Shown piece after piece: positions 13,689 through 47,209 of a DNA stretch of 64,000 nt. The stretch's first letter is position 1, and each line of letters opens with the position of its first letter. Origin of the DNA: Capsulimonadaceae bacterium (GTDB lineage: Bacteria; Armatimonadota; Armatimonadia; Armatimonadales; Capsulimonadaceae); NCBI GenBank assembly GCA_965215505.1, contig OZ244065.1, positions 3,584,001-3,648,000 of the forward strand. The letters are read 5' to 3'. The notes beneath the pieces are model-generated. The model was given only the letters and a program-made list of their open reading frames with translations, ran no database searches and was not told where the DNA came from. Position numbers and translations under genes: made by a program.

Positions 13689-14825
13689 TTATTTCTCGTT
13701 GTAGAATGGGTAGTCGGTGTAGCCGTGCGCGCCGCCCCCGTAGAAGGTCGCACGATCGGGCGCGTTAAGCGGTGCGCTCTTTCGGATGCGCTCGGGGAGG
13801 TCGGGGTTGGCGAGGAACAGCCGCCCGAAGGCGACGCCATCGGCCTCCCCCGATTTGACTGTCGCCGCCGCGCTTTCCGGCGTGTAGGCCGCCGCCGAGA
13901 TCAGCGGCCCGTCGAATAGGGGGCGGAACAGGGCGGCGTTGTTCACCGCCCGCGCGTGGAGGTCGTCGCTCAGGCCGATCTCGGAGCCGAGGGCTTCGAT
14001 CAGGTGCAGATACGCGATCCGGCGCTCACTTAGCCGGGCGATGACGTAGGAGAAAAGGCCGACGGGGTCACCGTCGGAGATGCCCCCGAACTGCCCGTGC
14101 GGCGACAGGCGCACCCCGAGCCGGTCCATGCCGATGGCCCCGCCGACCGCCTCCACCACTTCCAGGAGCAGCCGCGCCCGGTTCTCAATGCCGCCGCCGT
14201 AGCCGTCCGTGCGCTTGTTCGTCCCGTCCTCCAAGAACTGCTCCAGCAGGTGGCCGTTGGCCCCCTGGACGCAGGCCCCGTCGAACCCGGCCTCCATCGC
14301 ATTCACAGCCGCCCGGCGAAAGGAATCAACGATGCCGGGAAGCTCGGACGTTTCCAGGGCGCGCGGCGTCTCATAAGCGACCGCCTCAAAGGCGGGCGTG
14401 TGGGCCTGCCCGGTCGGCGGGATCGCGGACGGGGCGACGGGCAGTTCGCCGTCCGGCATGTACGAAGAGTGCGAGTTGCGGCCGTTGTGGGCGATCTGCA
14501 TGACGATCCGCCCGCCCCGCGCATGCACCCCGTCCGTGACGGCCCGCCAGCCTGCGACCTGGGCGGGCGTGAACGCGCCGGGGACATCGGGGTAGCCCTG
14601 CCCCTGCCGGCTGACCGTCGTGTCTTCCGTGAAGAGCAGCGCCGCCGAGGCGCGCTGGGCGTAGTATTCGGCGTTCAAGGCCGTGGGTATCCCGCCCGGC
14701 CCCGCCCGCATCCGGGTGAGCGGGGCCATGAGGACGCGGTGCGGGAGTTCGAGCGCCCCGAGCCGTAGGGGCGTGAAAAGCGTATCCGAGAGCGTGTCGG
14801 CAAGCAAAGTGTCCCTCCAGTCCAT
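13689..14825 (-). CDS. alkene reductase (Old Yellow Enzyme, NemA-like)
   Basis: MAPLTRMRA, YYAQRASA, NKRTDGYGG, FGRLFLANPDL and GYTDYP motifs. Confidence 0.9.
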   Translation of the reverse strand: MDWRDTLLADTLSDTLFTPLRLGALELPHRVLMAPLTRMRAGPGGIPTALNAEYYAQRASAALLFTEDTTVSRQGQGYPDVPGAFTPAQVAGWRAVTDGVHARGGRIVMQIAHNGRNSHSSYMPDGELPVAPSAIPPTGQAHTPAFEAVAYETPRALETSELPGIVDSFRRAAVNAMEAGFDGACVQGANGHLLEQFLEDGTNKRTDGYGGGIENRARLLLEVVEAVGGAIGMDRLGVRLSPHGQFGGISDGDPVGLFSYVIARLSERRIAYLHLIEALGSEIGLSDDLHARAVNNAALFRPLFDGPLISAAAYTPESAAATVKSGEADGVAFGRLFLANPDLPERIRKSAPLNAPDRATFYGGGAHGYTDYPFYNEK

Positions 14826-40658: not shown

Positions 40659-41735
40659 TCACCTGCGGCTGCTCGCGGTCGTCAGCAGGGGCGAAACATC
40701 GAGAAGCCAGAGGGTGGCACTTTTGTATCCCATCAGAACCCGACCTGCCCCCGCCGAATGAAGCGATGTCAGGCCGCCCTCATAGGCGAGGATGCTGCCC
40801 GGATCGTCCGTCTCCTTGCCCCTTTGGTCGTACCCGCGCAGGCTGTATCCGGGCGGCCAGACGGTCCCGATCAACTGCATCGTCCGACGGTCAATGAGCA
40901 ACAGACGGCCAAACCGCGTGTCGGCGAGCAGATGGTCATCGTCTAGAAAGATGGCTTGGTAGCCGATCTCGTCCCCGAACTCGCCGCCGAGATCATCCGC
41001 CGCGAAAATCACTCTGCCCTCAATGGAGGCGGCCACCTGCCCGCCTGGAAAGGAGTGGACCTCCACGGCGTCGCCCGAATGCGCCCCGGTCGCGAACTCA
41101 CCGCCGCCGGGGGAGAGGCTGGGCATGGTCCGGTCGTCGAGGGGATATCCCTCGACCGTCAAGCCCGCGCCCGTCAGCCGCGCCAGGTGGAGAAAGCTCC
41201 CATCCTGGCCGCACGCGACGTCAATCAGCGCGCCGGCTTGGTCCGGCAGTGGGAACAGGTAGTAGTGTCCGACATCGCCTGTGATCTCCTGTTCGAAGAG
41301 CGCCGCGCCTGAGGCCGGGTCCAGGACCGTCAGCATGGCTTCAGTCCATGTATCTTTATAGGGGCGGACGTACCAGAGCCTGCCTTGCGCGTCGAAGAAG
41401 CAGCCGCTGCCGGTGAACGACTCCCAGGGGTCGTGCGGGAGGTAATGCAGGATGGCCCCACGCCGGTCGGCGATACGCAGCTCAGTCCGGCCCGACAGCG
41501 CAAGCAGCGCGCCGTCCCGGCTCATCGTAACCTGCGTCGAGCAGTAGTCCTCGGACTGTGTCCGGAGGTCGAGGTGCTGGACCTCATTCAGCCGGGAGTC
41601 GAGGATGATGACCTCCGGATGGTCTTGAAACGAGAGGACCCAGCCGCCATCGTGCGTCGGCACCGGCAGGTTCGGGCTGTGGGTAAATTCCCGTGCCGCG
41701 ATGATTTCGACTGTCAGCGACTTACCCAGGTTCAT
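40659..41735 (-). CDS. hypothetical protein, possibly beta-propeller
   Basis: beta-rich repeats such as MSRDGALLALSG and LSPGGGEFATG. Confidence 0.6.
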   Translation of the reverse strand: MNLGKSLTVEIIAAREFTHSPNLPVPTHDGGWVLSFQDHPEVIILDSRLNEVQHLDLRTQSEDYCSTQVTMSRDGALLALSGRTELRIADRRGAILHYLPHDPWESFTGSGCFFDAQGRLWYVRPYKDTWTEAMLTVLDPASGAALFEQEITGDVGHYYLFPLPDQAGALIDVACGQDGSFLHLARLTGAGLTVEGYPLDDRTMPSLSPGGGEFATGAHSGDAVEVHSFPGGQVAASIEGRVIFAADDLGGEFGDEIGYQAIFLDDDHLLADTRFGRLLLIDRRTMQLIGTVWPPGYSLRGYDQRGKETDDPGSILAYEGGLTSLHSAGAGRVLMGYKSATLWLLDVSPLLTTASSRR

Positions 41736-43191: not shown

Positions 43192-43821
43192 TTACCCCAC
43201 CCCCGCCCGGCACAGGGCACACAGCGGCATCGTTTCGGCCTCGGCGCCCTCAGACCCGCCGGGGGCGGCCAGCGCGCCGCAGCGGGCGCAGGGGGACCAG
43301 CCGCGGCGGCGTTTCCACTCGTCGGCGCGGGCGGCGTGGAGCATGACGGCGCGGATGCGCCCGCGCAGGGAGTCCTCGGTGATGGCGGCGAGGGCCGTTT
43401 CGATCCGCAGGCTCGCTTCCCTCGGGAGCGTGATGCGGGCCAGCTCCTGGGCGGTCGGGGTTGCCGGGGCGGCGGCGGGCGGCTTCTTCTTGTCGCGGGC
43501 CAGCCCGGAAGCCTTGAAGTGGATGTCGGTCAGGACGCGCCCGCCCAGCTTGCTGTTCAGGCGGCGCAGCATGTCCTCTTTGAGCAAAGTCAGCTCGTTG
43601 GCCCACACGCTGTTCTTGACGCGCACGAACAGGACGCCGTCGCGCACCGACTCGACCTGGGTGACGCCCGCCACCTGGGGGCCGACGACGCCGACCCAGT
43701 GGACTTTCGCCAGGTGGGGGCGGAGCATCTGCGCGATCTCCTGCGACTGCAAGAAGCCGCTGACGGCGCTTGACGCCGGTGCCATCCCGCGCGTCCTCCG
43801 GGGGGCTTGCGGATCTCTCAT
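43192..43821 (-). CDS. dciA: DciA/DUF721 family protein with C-terminal Zn ribbon
   Basis: WVGVVGPQVA...GVLFVRVKNSVWANEL; CxxC pairs; ATGA-coupled to recF. Confidence 0.78.
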   Translation of the reverse strand: MRDPQAPRRTRGMAPASSAVSGFLQSQEIAQMLRPHLAKVHWVGVVGPQVAGVTQVESVRDGVLFVRVKNSVWANELTLLKEDMLRRLNSKLGGRVLTDIHFKASGLARDKKKPPAAAPATPTAQELARITLPREASLRIETALAAITEDSLRGRIRAVMLHAARADEWKRRRGWSPCARCGALAAPGGSEGAEAETMPLCALCRAGVG

Positions 43822-44948
43822 TGCTTGGTGACCTCCCCGTCGGTGACGGAGTAGACGGCGGCGCGCTCCAGAACGGCGGGCGAGAAGGCGCGCAGGTTGG
43901 TACACGAGAGGAAGGTCTGCGACCCGGCCCGCGCGGTCAGGTCGAACAGCAGGCCGCGCCGGGCGTCGTCGAGGTCCGAAAGCACGTCGTCCAGCAGCAG
44001 CAGGGGCGGCTCGCCGACCAGCTCTTCTATCAGTTGCCGCTCGGCGAGTTTCAGGGACAGGGCGACGGTCCGCTGCTGGCCCTGCGACCCGAACAGGCGG
44101 CAGTCCTGGCCATTGACCAGGAAGGCGATGTCGTCGCGCTGCGGCCCGCGCACGGTGACGCCGCGCGCCGCCTCCTCCCCGGCGACGGAGGCGAGTTCTT
44201 CCAGGAACCGGCCCTGGATGGCGGACGCTTCGGTCAGGCCGTCAATCGGGAACGACGGCAGGTAGGTGACTTGCAGCTCGTCGCGCTGGTCGCTCAGGGT
44301 CCGGTGCGTCTCGGAGGCGAGCTGGGCCAGCCGTTCCAGGAACAGCCGGCGGCGCTCGACCAGCCGCGCCCCGTGCTGGGCCAGGCCCTCGTTCCAGGCC
44401 GGCAGGCTCTCGCGGGCCGCGCCGGAGATGCGCCCGTCGCGCAGGTCGCGCAGGAGCCGGTTGCGCTGCTCCAGAGTCTTGCGGTAGGACCCGAGGGCGA
44501 GGACGTAGCGCGGGGAGGTCTGGGCGATCTCCAGGTCCAGGAACCGGCGGCGGATCGCCGGCTCGCCCCGGATGATCTCCAGGTCGCCGCTGTCAAAGAG
44601 AACGGCGTTGAGCTGCCCGATGACCTCCGAAAGCCGCGTGTGCTTGACGCCGTTGATCCGGGCGGCCTTCTTCTCGGTCTGGGACAGCGTCATCTCGACC
44701 TCGATGTCGCTGGTCTTCTCCCGGACGACGTCGGCGGTGATCCGGGCGGCGGGCGTGCCGAATCGGACCAGCTCGACGTCCTTGCCGGCCCGCGACGACT
44801 TGCTGGTCGCCAGGATGTAGAGGCTTTCCAGCAGGTTGCTCTTGCCCTGGGCGTTGCGCCCGACAAAGATGTTCAGGCCCTCCCCCGGCTCGATGCGGAG
44901 CGTCCCGTAATTCCGAAAGTTGTCCAGTTTGAGCGATGTGACGTGCAT
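43818..44948 (-). CDS. recF: DNA replication/repair protein RecF
   Basis: NFRNY, GRNAQGKSN, GPQRDD, SQGQQR and LLDDVLSDLD motifs. Confidence 0.95.
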   Translation of the reverse strand: MHVTSLKLDNFRNYGTLRIEPGEGLNIFVGRNAQGKSNLLESLYILATSKSSRAGKDVELVRFGTPAARITADVVREKTSDIEVEMTLSQTEKKAARINGVKHTRLSEVIGQLNAVLFDSGDLEIIRGEPAIRRRFLDLEIAQTSPRYVLALGSYRKTLEQRNRLLRDLRDGRISGAARESLPAWNEGLAQHGARLVERRRLFLERLAQLASETHRTLSDQRDELQVTYLPSFPIDGLTEASAIQGRFLEELASVAGEEAARGVTVRGPQRDDIAFLVNGQDCRLFGSQGQQRTVALSLKLAERQLIEELVGEPPLLLLDDVLSDLDDARRGLLFDLTARAGSQTFLSCTNLRAFSPAVLERAAVYSVTDGEVTKQ

Positions 44949-44952
44949 GGCG

Positions 44953-45429
44953 CGTGACTCTTCTATTCTTAGCATAAGAGTCTAAATTCTTAGTAGTGAT
45001 AGTAGTAGGTGTGTGACTCACATGTGACTCAACGAATCCCGGCGGGGCCGATGTGCCCGGATCGCCCGGTTTTTGCCAGATTCCCGCGAGTCTCCCCAGG
45101 CGGTTTGACGACCTGGGGCTGGAATCGCTTAATTCCGAGAGTCACGCTGAGTCACAGTCGCCTGTGACTCAACTGTGACTCAACTGTGACTCAAGGCCGG
45201 ATTTTGTGACTCTGTGACTCTCGCGGATTCGTTAAGTCACAAAAGGTGGTCGTTGAGTCACACTATGTCACACTGAGTCACAGGTTGAGTCACAGGCTCT
45301 CGGCCCTAACCCCGGCGCTCGCGCCGGGGTTAGGGCCGAAACGACACGGCCTCGTGTTCTGTCACAGTGTCACACCTTCTGTCACACCTGTGACACAAGG
45401 CGCTTTTGTGTGACACAGCCTGTGACACT
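44953..45429. other. oriC: putative chromosomal replication origin (oriC) with non-canonical boxes
   Basis: directly downstream of dnaA; AT-rich tract, TAG-trio run at 44991-45008 and ~19 TGTGAC(T/A)C(A/T)-type repeats. Confidence 0.85.
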
Positions 45430-47209
45430 ACCCGCCCCGCTCGATCTCCTGCCGGATTCTGCCGATCAAGGACAGTATCTGCGGGTCCTCCTCGATCTCC
45501 TTCTGGAGACGCACGGCGGCGTGGACGATGGCCGTGTGACTCTTCAGGCCGAACGTCGCCGCAAGTGCGGACAGCGGCACGCCGCCCAGTTCTTTCGTCA
45601 GGTACATCGCCACCTGGCGCGCGAACCCGGCGTCGCCGTGCAAGCGCGTCGCCCGGTTGCTGCGCCCGCCGCCGGCCAGGATCTGGTCCCGCGAGACGCC
45701 CATCTGCGAGGCGACCGCGTCAATGATCCGGTCCACCGTCGGCCCGCCCGCGCTCATCGGCAGGCGCGGCGGCAGGACGAAGTCGCCATTGGTCGGCGGC
45801 GCGTGGTCCTCGGGATGAGCAGACGCCGACTCGCGTCCAAACCCTTCGCGCGGCGGCATCTGTTTGACGTAGTAGCTGCTCAGGACGTCTGAGGCGAGCT
45901 GCTTGGTGACGGGGCTGCGGGCCAGCGAGGCGTAGGCCATCAGCTTGATCAGGGCGCCCTCCAGGGAGCGGATGTTGCTCTGGATGAGGTTCGCCATGAA
46001 GGTGATCACGTCGTCGGGGATCGCCAGGTTCTCCAGAATGGCTTTGCGCTGGAGGATCGCCTCCCGCATCTCGAGTTCCGGCGGGGCGATGTCGGCGACC
46101 AGGCCGCACTCGAAGCGCGACTGGAGCCGCTCGTCCATCGCCTTCAGCTCGCGCGGCGAGCGGTCGCTGGTCAGGACGATCTGCTTGTTCATCTGGTGCA
46201 GGACGTTGAAGGTGTGGAAGAACTCTTCTTTGGTCTGCTCCTTGGAGGCCAGCATCTGGACATCATCCACCAGCCACACGTCCACGCTGCGGTAGGCCCG
46301 CCGGAAGTCCTCCATCTTCTTGTCGCGCAGGGCGGCCACATAGTGGTTCGTGAAGGTCTCCCCGCTGACGTAGGCCACGCGCGCCTGCGGCAGCATCAGG
46401 CGGATCTGGTGGCCGATGGCGTGAGCTAAATGAGTCTTTCCAAGACCTGGGCTGCCGTACAAGAACAGTGGATTATACGTCTTGCCGGGCGACTGCGCGA
46501 CGGCGACCGCGCCGGCCTGGGCGAGCCGGTTGGACTTGCCGACGACGAAGTTGTCGAAGGTGTAGCGCGGGTTGAGCGGCGAGGCGATCAGCTCATTGGT
46601 GAGCTGGCTGCGGACGCCGCGCCCGATGCTGCCGCCGCTGCCGCCCGCGTCCGACCCATCGGGGACCAGGGCGAGTTCGGACTGCCCGGCGGGGACCGGC
46701 AAGAGCGACTCGGGCGAGGGGGCGGGCCGGGCCAGCGGCGCGGCGGCCTGCTGCAACGGCAATGGCTGTTCGCCGAGGAGCGGCTGGACGTCGGGCGTCG
46801 AGATGACGAACCGGACCTGGACGGCGGGGATGTCCAGGAACTGCGCCAGGTGCAGGGCCAGGGTCTGGGCGTACTTGGCCTCGACGAAGGTCCGGGCGAA
46901 CGACGACGGGGCACCCAGGACGACGACCGGCAGGCTGCCGGCGGAGGGCGGGCTGTAGGAGAGCGGCTTGAGCGGGCGGAGCCAGTTGCCGATGGTCTGG
47001 GGGGTGGCCGACCCGGCCAGGGCGCGCAGGGTCCGCTCCCAGGCCTTGCGGAGCGCGGTCAGGCCCTCCTCCTCGCCCAGTTCCAGCTGCTGGTCCCGAA
47101 AAGACTGGTCTTTGAAAGACTGGTCTTTGAGGGGCTGGTCGGAGGCGTCGTCGCTGGGTGTCGGGTGGCTGCTCACGGGTTTCCTGGGAAGACAAGAGTG
47201 GGAAGACAA
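45428..47209 (-). CDS. dnaA: chromosomal replication initiator DnaA (start uncertain)
   Basis: YTFDNFVVGKSN, YNPLFLYGSPGLGKTHL, DDVQ, EEFFHTFN, RLQSRF, NIRSLEGAL and ARQVAMYL motifs. Confidence 0.95.
   Translation of the reverse strand: MSSHSCLPRKPVSSHPTPSDDASDQPLKDQSFKDQSFRDQQLELGEEEGLTALRKAWERTLRALAGSATPQTIGNWLRPLKPLSYSPPSAGSLPVVVLGAPSSFARTFVEAKYAQTLALHLAQFLDIPAVQVRFVISTPDVQPLLGEQPLPLQQAAAPLARPAPSPESLLPVPAGQSELALVPDGSDAGGSGGSIGRGVRSQLTNELIASPLNPRYTFDNFVVGKSNRLAQAGAVAVAQSPGKTYNPLFLYGSPGLGKTHLAHAIGHQIRLMLPQARVAYVSGETFTNHYVAALRDKKMEDFRRAYRSVDVWLVDDVQMLASKEQTKEEFFHTFNVLHQMNKQIVLTSDRSPRELKAMDERLQSRFECGLVADIAPPELEMREAILQRKAILENLAIPDDVITFMANLIQSNIRSLEGALIKLMAYASLARSPVTKQLASDVLSSYYVKQMPPREGFGRESASAHPEDHAPPTNGDFVLPPRLPMSAGGPTVDRIIDAVASQMGVSRDQILAGGGRSNRATRLHGDAGFARQVAMYLTKELGGVPLSALAATFGLKSHTAIVHAAVRLQKEIEEDPQILSLIGRIRQEIERGG

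Follow-up and report, generated by a model that had tools for sequence, protein, structure and literature searches.

We analyzed a 64-kb window (positions 3,584,001 to 3,648,000) of the single-contig genome of a Capsulimonadaceae bacterium (G000; 6,177,771 bp, 66.5% G+C), in which dnaA, a 479-bp gap, recF, and dciA follow one another on the minus strand. The gap (window positions 44949 to 45427, at approximately 3.629 Mb of the genome) is very probably the chromosomal origin of replication (oriC), and the TGAGTCACA repeats that it contains are very probably the sites bound by the initiator DnaA. The DnaA box is among the most conserved protein-binding sites in bacteria. What we describe would be a known kind of origin, with Bacillus-type unwinding, in which the new part is the sequence of the box together with a matching loop and helix of DnaA.

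A first-pass annotation of this DNA had reported nine perfect copies of the repeat in the gap, and we observed all nine TGAGTCACA/TGTGACTCA copies at the positions it gave (45012, 45023, 45148, 45163, 45174, 45185, 45254, 45274, and 45286). Only 0.16 copies were expected in the window, and none of 100 shuffles reached nine. The whole genome contained 17 perfect TGAGTCACA copies, nine of which fell within one 283-bp stretch of the gap; the eight outside the gap are, if anything, below chance, as the shuffle expectation scaled roughly to the genome is approximately 15. With the pattern relaxed to 9-mers with a GTCAC core (NNNGTCA(C/T)N), 21 sites were detected in 500 bp at the dnaA-recF gap, comprising the nine perfect copies and 12 variants, so that the earlier figure of about ten variants was a fair one. 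The motif WGWGTCACA was matched 16 times in the window (0.59 expected), always within 45012 to 45543, with 15 in the gap and one just inside the 3' end of dnaA. A GTCACA cluster of this kind (20 sites in 600 bp) occurred nowhere else in the 6.18-Mb genome. The chromosome thus possesses a single cluster of candidate initiator boxes, located next to dnaA, as is looked for in an oriC.

Canonical DnaA boxes were absent from the gap, as had been claimed: we detected no match to TTATCCACA there at one mismatch or fewer, a threshold that also covers TTATNCACA. The only two matches in the window at this threshold, at 41678 and 63505, were at chance level. Genome-wide, canonical TTATNCACA occurred 21 times with no pair within 1 kb, so the genome has no canonical cluster, and neither the window scan nor the genome scan revealed a box cluster on the upstream side of dnaA. 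We also observed that small sets of three TKWTNCACA matches recur at similar spacing at 3.140 to 3.155 Mb and at 14,148 to 14,487. TGAGTCACA differs from TTATCCACA by three mismatches (positions 2, 4, and 5) and from TTATNCACA by two, keeping six of the nine canonical positions, including the whole CACA half. Relative to the canonical pattern TTATNCACA (T at positions 2 and 4, A or T at position 3, and CACA at positions 6 to 9), it lacks the two T residues.

The part of the gap nearest recF was directly observed to have the layout of an unwinding module. Read on the minus strand, it consists of TGAGTCACA-TG-TGAGTCACA-CAC, trio-like triplets, and then AT-rich DNA, exactly as the first-pass annotation had read it. 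The two tandem perfect TGAGTCACA copies (45012 to 45031, minus strand; 11 bp from start to start) both face the trios. A 3-bp G+C spacer (45009 to 45011; CAC on the minus strand) separates the proximal box from the first trio, and six DnaA-trio-like triplets follow (44991 to 45008; CTA CTA CTA TCA CTA CTA on the minus strand), with the plus strand reading 3'-GAT-5' for five of the six and AGT for one. Beyond the triplets lies an AT-rich tract (44957 to 44990), the candidate unwinding element. Positions 44964 to 45003 form the most AT-rich 40-mer of the window (72.5% AT) and rank in the top 0.03% of genome windows.

A basal unwinding system (BUS) is defined, in the passages of PMC8287927 devoted to it, as a DnaA box, often in a tandem pair, no more than 16 bp from at least three trios (3'-NAN-5', mostly 3'-GAT-5'), with the spacer from the better box peaking at 10 to 13 bp. 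The search described in the same passages tolerates up to two mismatches, counted against the E. coli box or against a species-specific one from DoriC (PMC8287927). In the gap, the distance to the trios is 3 bp for the proximal box and 14 bp for the distal box, inside the published 16-bp limit, and six triplets, all scored as having a central A on the bound strand, are found where three are called for. The orientation of the tandem boxes and the AT-rich DNA beyond the trios likewise agree with the BUS definition. The sole sequence feature of the definition from which the gap departs is the standard box, as TGAGTCACA lies one mismatch over the limit of the published program.

This arrangement resembles the incC region of Bacillus subtilis oriC (boxes 6 and 7, trios, and AT-rich DNA), which, as described in sections of PMC8287927, PMC6669920, and PMC10721633, is also downstream of dnaA and has tandem boxes in the same direction, a short G+C spacer, at least three 3'-GAT-5' trios, and an AT-rich tract after them. 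The tandem pair at 45012 to 45031 takes the place of B. subtilis DnaA-boxes 6 and 7. The gap differs from the B. subtilis origin in the box, which is TGAGTCACA; in the gene downstream, which is recF and not dnaN; in that no cluster was seen upstream of dnaA in our scans; and in the helicase partner, which from the gene present would be DciA here, as opposed to DnaD, DnaB, and DnaI in B. subtilis. In Clostridioides difficile oriC2, the trio sequence 5'-CACCTACTACTATTACTACTATGA-3' is nearly the same string as CAC CTA CTA CTA TCA CTA CTA AGA in the gap, differing at a few bases, and each of the two regions has its boxes immediately before the trio and its unwinding element beyond it (portions of PMC7561715 on oriC2). 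C. difficile differs in having canonical TTWTNCACA-type boxes and in belonging to another phylum. A basal unwinding layout of the B. subtilis type had been proposed from the first reading of the sequence, and the order of boxes, trios, and AT-rich DNA, together with the eight related loci described below, backs that proposal.

Species-specific DnaA boxes have precedents. Consensus sequences given in part of PMC5043019 include TTWTNCACA in E. coli, YWRTCCACA in M. tuberculosis, and a box with T fixed at position 5 in Epsilonproteobacteria; the box is described there as varying by lineage with its CACA half kept, and the variation is attributed to two parts of domain IV, its basic loop and the beginning of helix 5. 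The oriC of Thermotoga maritima (PMC10316083) counts among such cases. The quoted E. coli, M. tuberculosis, and Epsilonproteobacteria consensuses retain T at position 4, where the box in the gap has G.

We also examined the DnaA protein encoded beside the gap. The dnaA gene (45428 to 47209, minus strand; longest open reading frame, TTG start) encodes 593 residues, with domain IV at residues 489 to 590; the database form of the protein (P0002) has 582 residues, implying a start near 47176. The gene is single copy in the whole genome. The domain III AAA+ and domain IV helix-turn-helix regions both scored above the curated Pfam cutoffs, with Bac_DnaA at 228 bits (cutoff 23) and Bac_DnaA_C at 42.4 bits (cutoff 31.5), and DnaA_N scored 27 bits. 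In the structural description excerpted from PMC5742627, the helix at residues 434 to 451 in the major groove reads the 3' part of the box, TnCACA, and Arg399 of a loop in the minor groove reads the 5' TTA. Base-specific residues given in part of PMC5043019 are 399 in the basic loop between helices 2 and 3, 423 in helix 4, and 432 to 435 plus 438 and 439 in helix 5.

For alignment, we used E. coli domain IV (chain 1j1v) and B. subtilis DnaA (8btg), the latter being the best solved relative of the protein (E = 1.4e-97). In E. coli numbering, residues 434 (His558), 435 (Thr559), and 439 (His563) are kept, and residues 423 (P to S547), 432 (R to K556), 433 (D to S557), and 438 (L to V562) are changed. 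The loop between helices 2 and 3 (residues 513 to 526) is eight residues longer and contains three Arg; residue 399 could not be aligned within it. In the AlphaFold model, most 10-residue blocks of domain IV had predicted local distance difference test (pLDDT) values of 82 to 92, and the loop blocks had values of 62 to 79. Because the published contacts map in this way, the kept CACA half of the box would face kept residues and the changed half would face the rebuilt loop. To our knowledge, and from a literature search, no DnaA with a basic loop eight residues longer has been described.

The loop is under constraint, and both it and the helix are conserved among homologs. Among 41 aligned proteins, for which 40 of 88 hits were chosen (548 to 613 residues, without the intein domain), G513 to G515, R516, S517, R519, A520, G525, and D526 in the loop were invariant, and R522 was present in at least 90%. 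The helix motif FGLKSH[TS]A was found in 86 of 89 proteins, with FGCKNRTA in one and the remaining two truncated.

In a scan of all phyla with one genome per species with DnaA (80 dnaA loci), perfect TGAGTCACA was detected in five loci, all labeled Armatimonadota, Armatimonadales, or Capsulimonadaceae. A sixth locus, L005, contained six copies of TGAGTCACG, and both TGAGTCACA and TGAGTCACG were absent from the other 74. We observed the layout of the gap to be kept in eight related loci (L004, L005, L008, L010, L020, L084, L085, and L086), whose DnaA proteins are 63 to 84% identical. In L004, L005, L008, L010, L020, and the same-genus genomes G112, G103, and G066 (the last being the genome of L086), the cluster lies no more than approximately 1 kb downstream of dnaA. 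In these relatives, two to three tandem boxes are followed by a spacer of 3 bp (cac, tct, ccc, or cct), six NTA triplets, a conserved TAAGAAT-TA-CTTAT block within the AT-rich tract, and then recF. Tandem or triple boxes at steps of 9 to 11 bp were found in eight of nine loci, with L020 having two boxes 21 bp apart. In L003, just 361 bp past dnaA are on the sequence, and the first two boxes are visible there. In a separate search of Armatimonadota (121 genomes, 113 with a DnaA match), we examined 29 of the best 30 loci, of which 28 could be used, the remaining one being cut by a contig end. Three of these 28, exactly the three same-genus genomes, had both the box cluster and the altered domain IV.

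We also tallied 129 sites from eight loci. Position 2 was G in 99, position 8 was C in 126, and position 9 was A in 116; G at position 4 and CA at positions 6 and 7, present in all 129, were demanded by the scan pattern itself. The consensus over these sites is W-G-W-G-T-C-A-C-A, and judged from this alignment the motif is better written WGWGTCACA, with position 5 fixed as T.

Sister lineages suggest what preceded this box. In the sister family of the same order, of which three of five genomes were examined, all three loci had canonical boxes downstream of dnaA (12, 5, and 15) and a canonical domain IV. Downstream of dnaA in L088, TTATCCACA is followed by ATGC, five CTA repeats, and then an AT-rich tract; in L091, TTATCCACA is followed by 14 bp, five CTA repeats, and an AT-rich tract; the arrangement in L089 is looser. 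Because this outgroup has TTATCCACA beside the trios, the new box occupies the trio-adjacent position of the canonical box. G053, a genome of another genus of the same family as G000, had no box array beside dnaA, upstream or downstream. Upstream of its recF, however, lay nine GATTCAC boxes (0.73 expected) together with an AT-rich tract; trios were not evident there. The consensus of these boxes, (T/C)GATTCAC(A/G), has G at position 2 and still has T at position 4. In all seven loci of another family and in one locus of a further family (together L090, L097, L099, and L101 to L105), the 900 bp downstream of dnaA held 7 to 13 boxes of the TTTTCAACA type, and the DnaA helix reads GKNHST. By these sequence comparisons, the Armatimonadota hold at least four putative DnaA-box dialects: TTATCCACA, TTTTCAACA, TGATTCAC, and WGWGTCACA.

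Changes in the box were accompanied by changes in domain IV, and this joint change was observed in more than one locus. In L005, none of 19 boxes ended in A (12 ended in G and 7 in C), compared with 116 of 129 in the other loci, and the helix of its DnaA starts with NNRT instead of KSHT, which places Arg at the His434 position. In G053, the TGATTCAC box is paired with a loop approximately five residues longer than the canonical one and with a DISHSA helix. The first-pass annotation had concluded that TGAGTCACA holds the position of the DnaA box and that the lineage re-specified its recognition sequence at positions 2 and 4; the location of the box, the relatives, and the domain IV changes all support this, with binding specificity predicted from sequence. 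The box change appears to have come in steps, with (T/C)GATTCAC(A/G) of G053 as a likely intermediate. We tentatively suggest, at somewhat less than even odds, that this stepwise rewriting within the order was driven by the enlarged basic loop acting as a new reading head for G at positions 2 and 4. The series would run from TTATCCACA in the sister family to (T/C)GATTCAC(A/G) with a loop extended by five residues, then to WGWGTCACA with a loop extended by eight residues and three Arg, and in a last step to WGWGTCA(C/T)(G/C) in L005 with Arg at the His434 position. Along this series, the single minor-groove contact of Arg399 would have been converted into that reading head.

From these observations, we infer that DnaA binds the boxes and that replication starts in the gap. 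The array is enriched, unique, and joined to an unwinding module that is kept in eight relatives, and for these reasons we favor the gap as a DnaA-dependent origin. In the mechanism that we propose, domain IV of DnaA would bind the approximately 21 nine-base boxes with the consensus WGWGTCACA, and the tandem boxes at 45012 to 45031 would direct a DnaA-ATP oligomer onto the six adjacent CTA-type trios of one strand. The neighboring AT-rich tract would then open for helicase loading with DciA, whose gene lies two genes downstream. G at positions 2 and 4 would be matched to the eight-residue extension of the loop over the 5' half of the box and to the substitutions at residues 423, 432, and 433, with the loop as a possible cause of the new specificity.

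To place the cluster on the chromosome, we considered strand asymmetries across the genome. Cumulative GC skew was highest at 3.29 Mb and lowest at 6.16 Mb. Gene orientation switched at approximately 3.2 to 3.3 Mb, with minus-strand genes dominating from 0 to 3.3 Mb and plus-strand genes from 3.3 to 6.2 Mb. The most polarized octamer, GGGTGGGG, which we take to behave like an FtsK-orienting sequence, switched sharply at approximately 0.57 Mb, where its strand ratio per 200 kb passed from 22:1 to 2:24; its second switch was diffuse, spanning 3.3 to 3.6 Mb and placed at approximately 3.40 Mb. Using a pattern that we presume to describe dif, we found two dif-like sites of the form TTTCCATAAT-GGnnAT-TATGTGACTG in the same orientation at 617,056 and 617,742, 686 bp apart. 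The pair adjoins the sharp GGGTGGGG switch, and it might flank a small integrated element. The genome also contains three ParB-like genes, at 3.297, 3.765, and 2.163 Mb, and the first of these falls at the GC-skew maximum.

The point antipodal to the dif-like pair is at 3.706 Mb, 77 kb from the cluster at 3.629 Mb. If replication ran from the cluster to a terminus at the dif-like sites, the two replichores would measure 3.17 and 3.01 Mb, the leading strand would carry 532 of 692 GGGTGGGG copies (77%) and 53.3% of coding bases, and the sole 16S gene (4.113 Mb, plus strand) would be co-directional with replication. The leading strand would have an inverted GC skew of -0.014 (C > G). The coding strand is rich in C at third codon positions (approximately -0.13), and GC skew at these positions, analyzed per gene strand, revealed an effect of the strand that gene orientation does not account for, the leading strand being C-rich. 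An origin at approximately 6.16 Mb, where the usual convention (minimum = origin) would put it, was rejected: only 198 of 692 GGGTGGGG copies and 43.5% of coding bases would be leading, leaving 71% and 56.5%, respectively, on the lagging strand, and the only rRNA operon would be head-on. These asymmetries, together with the dif-like sites, place the origin within approximately 3.3 to 3.7 Mb and are compatible with the cluster as the origin, without pinpointing it. The whole-genome GC-skew check that the first-pass annotation had called for gave no clean answer: the extremes at 3.29 and 6.16 Mb are off the cluster and the polarity is inverted. The proposal was to fall if the skew switch lay at a canonical box cluster, and this genome contains no such cluster.

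Several observations weigh against the gap as the firing origin and against its repeats as DnaA sites. The usual GC-skew convention points to approximately 6.16 Mb, and the GC-skew, gene-strand, and GGGTGGGG switches near the cluster all lie 0.23 to 0.34 Mb to its left. A similar offset appears in relatives. In G112, of which 800 kb (2.73 to 3.53 Mb) of 4.38 Mb was covered, GGGTGGGG switches at approximately 2.97 Mb and the cluster lies at 3.133 Mb, and the 160 kb between them contains eight forward and no reverse copies. In G121, among the matches listed (100 of 198 GGGTGGGG), forward copies are dense from approximately 1.011 Mb and the cluster is at approximately 1.079 Mb. A second class of boxes in the gap, TGTGNCACA, is near-palindromic and could serve some other dimeric protein. 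The AlphaFold model of full-length DnaA was poor (mean pLDDT of 58 and predicted template modeling score of 0.29), with domains I and IV alone usable. Finally, the joint changes of box and protein appear to represent two or three evolutionary events among close kin, which makes them supportive and not statistical proof.

The offset raises the possibility that the array is a real DnaA locus but not a firing origin, being instead a relic, a regulatory or titration site like datA, or an element for autoregulation of dnaA or recF, with replication starting 0.2 to 0.3 Mb away. The position of the skew maximum and of the gene-strand and GGGTGGGG switches to the left of the cluster, the ParB gene at 3.297 Mb, and the run of eight forward and no reverse GGGTGGGG copies from switch to cluster in G112 would all fit such a locus. 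However, no other cluster, novel or canonical, exists in the genome to serve as the start, and a full unwinding module, which a titration site does not need, is conserved in eight relatives. The offset itself amounts to 2 to 6% of the chromosome. We compared G000 and G112 near the cluster and found synteny in blocks of a few kilobases to tens of kilobases in both orientations. For the rRNA operon of G112 (3.045 to 3.051 Mb, minus strand) to be transcribed in the direction of replication, the origin must lie to its right, where the cluster is. The offset is softened because asymmetries may lag in a chromosome with synteny this scrambled and because the orientation of the G112 rRNA operon fits the cluster. 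We consider a nonfiring locus unlikely. In the same comparison, the distance from the rRNA operon to the origin was 82 kb in G112 and 484 kb in G000, and a dnaA-oriC-recF block of approximately 25 kb appeared inverted relative to its neighbors.

A second explanation, which we regard as a little less likely still, is that the repeats are bound by a protein other than DnaA, for instance a regulator of the origin or a dimeric transcription factor specific for palindromic TGAGTCA or TGTGNCACA cores. TGAGTCA within the 9-mer is palindromic, the class-2 sites are TGTG-N-CACA palindromes, and domain IV matched Bac_DnaA_C weakly (42 bits), so that its specificity cannot be read from homology alone. 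Direct repeats at steps of 10 to 11 bp with a conserved orientation toward the trios, however, are the behavior of an asymmetric monomer site. The repeats also occupy the same place relative to the trios as the canonical boxes of the sister family and keep six of nine positions with CACA, the reading residues of DnaA change with the box, and no other candidate DnaA cluster is present. These points argue for DnaA as the protein that binds the array. That the array is a chance product or a selfish repeat family (REP- or MITE-like) with no replication role might be suggested by the GC-rich perfect hairpin in the gap and by other palindromes there in relatives, but we find it barely credible, as nine of 17 genome copies are in one gap, the array stays at the same locus despite scrambled synteny, and the motif shifts in step with DnaA.

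The remainder of the gap contains two further box clusters. Approximately 100 bp from the tandem pair, across a box-free interval, a central array of 12 boxes in both orientations (45138 to 45294) is spaced at 8 to 21 bp, mostly 10 to 12 bp. It is composed of seven perfect TGAGTCACA copies, two of AGAGTCACA, and one each of AGAGTCACG, TAAGTCACA, and TATGTCACA, and it is presumed to be a DnaA oligomerization region. Next to dnaA, six boxes of class 2, in which position 3 is T (TCTGTCACA, AGTGTCACA, and TGTGTCACA), are clustered at 45358 to 45429, the last of them overlapping the dnaA stop codon. An equivalent cluster was found in L004, L010, L020, L084, L085, and L086. The T-at-position-3 boxes adjoining the dnaA stop, typified by TGTGTCACA, form by their sequence a putative second box class. 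Between the two clusters lies a perfect 19-bp inverted repeat with a 2-nucleotide loop (45300 to 45339), identified by sequence analysis, which may be a dnaA terminator or a structural element; other GC-rich palindromes occupy its place in relatives. The only Rfam match in the gap, to a microRNA model, was rejected, as its 27 bits against a gathering score of 74 reflect a hairpin-level match only.

On the recF side, a single AGAGTCACG box (44953 to 44961, minus strand) lies 4 bp upstream of the recF start codon. The AT-rich tract probably also holds the recF promoter, and a sigma-70-like promoter scan of 44800 to 45600 gave no sites and left this promoter unlocated. The recF gene (43818 to 44948, minus strand) encodes a protein with Pfam matches to SMC_N and AAA_15/23/21 and an N terminus common to relatives. 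Translation of recF most likely begins with the ATG at 44948 (MHVTSLKLDNFRNY, shared with relatives) and not with the upstream ATG at 44975. Directly downstream of recF is dciA (43192 to 43905, minus strand), which encodes the helicase operator DciA (Pfam DciA, 66.9 bits). dnaN lies away from dnaA, at 3.018 Mb, 0.6 Mb distant.

A literature search that combined the motif with DnaA and covered origins of Armatimonadetes or Armatimonadota and Capsulimonas returned nothing on this box. The genome paper on Fimbriimonas, the first of the Armatimonadota, reports in its treatment of replication two canonical boxes only and an odd GC skew and defines no oriC (sections of PMC4072686). The supplement text of PMC8287927 contains no entry for Armatimonadetes, Chthonomonas, Fimbriimonas, or Capsulimonas. 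Because they take TTATCCACA as their starting point and tolerate one or two mismatches, origin finders such as Ori-Finder, DoriC, and the published BUS search would miss or misplace this origin. Our results add the caution that, in this group, inversion and displacement of the GC skew can occur. The presence among close relatives of canonical, intermediate, and rewritten boxes, each with a matching domain IV change, makes the residues that set specificity testable. If our reading is correct, the phylum, including the TTTTCAACA families, offers a natural series for the DnaA recognition code and for orthogonal initiator-origin pairs.

Finally, we observed that dnaA in the window is intein-free and that many DnaA proteins of the genus are 829 to 1000 residues long due to an intein of approximately 380 residues with a LAGLIDADG domain in the Walker A loop. 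Examples include P0083 (from the genome of L008), P0015, P0027, approximately 25 others, and a 946-residue open frame in G066 (L086). At the intein borders, the N-extein ends in GLGK, and the intein starts with C and ends with HN, directly followed by the T of GKT.

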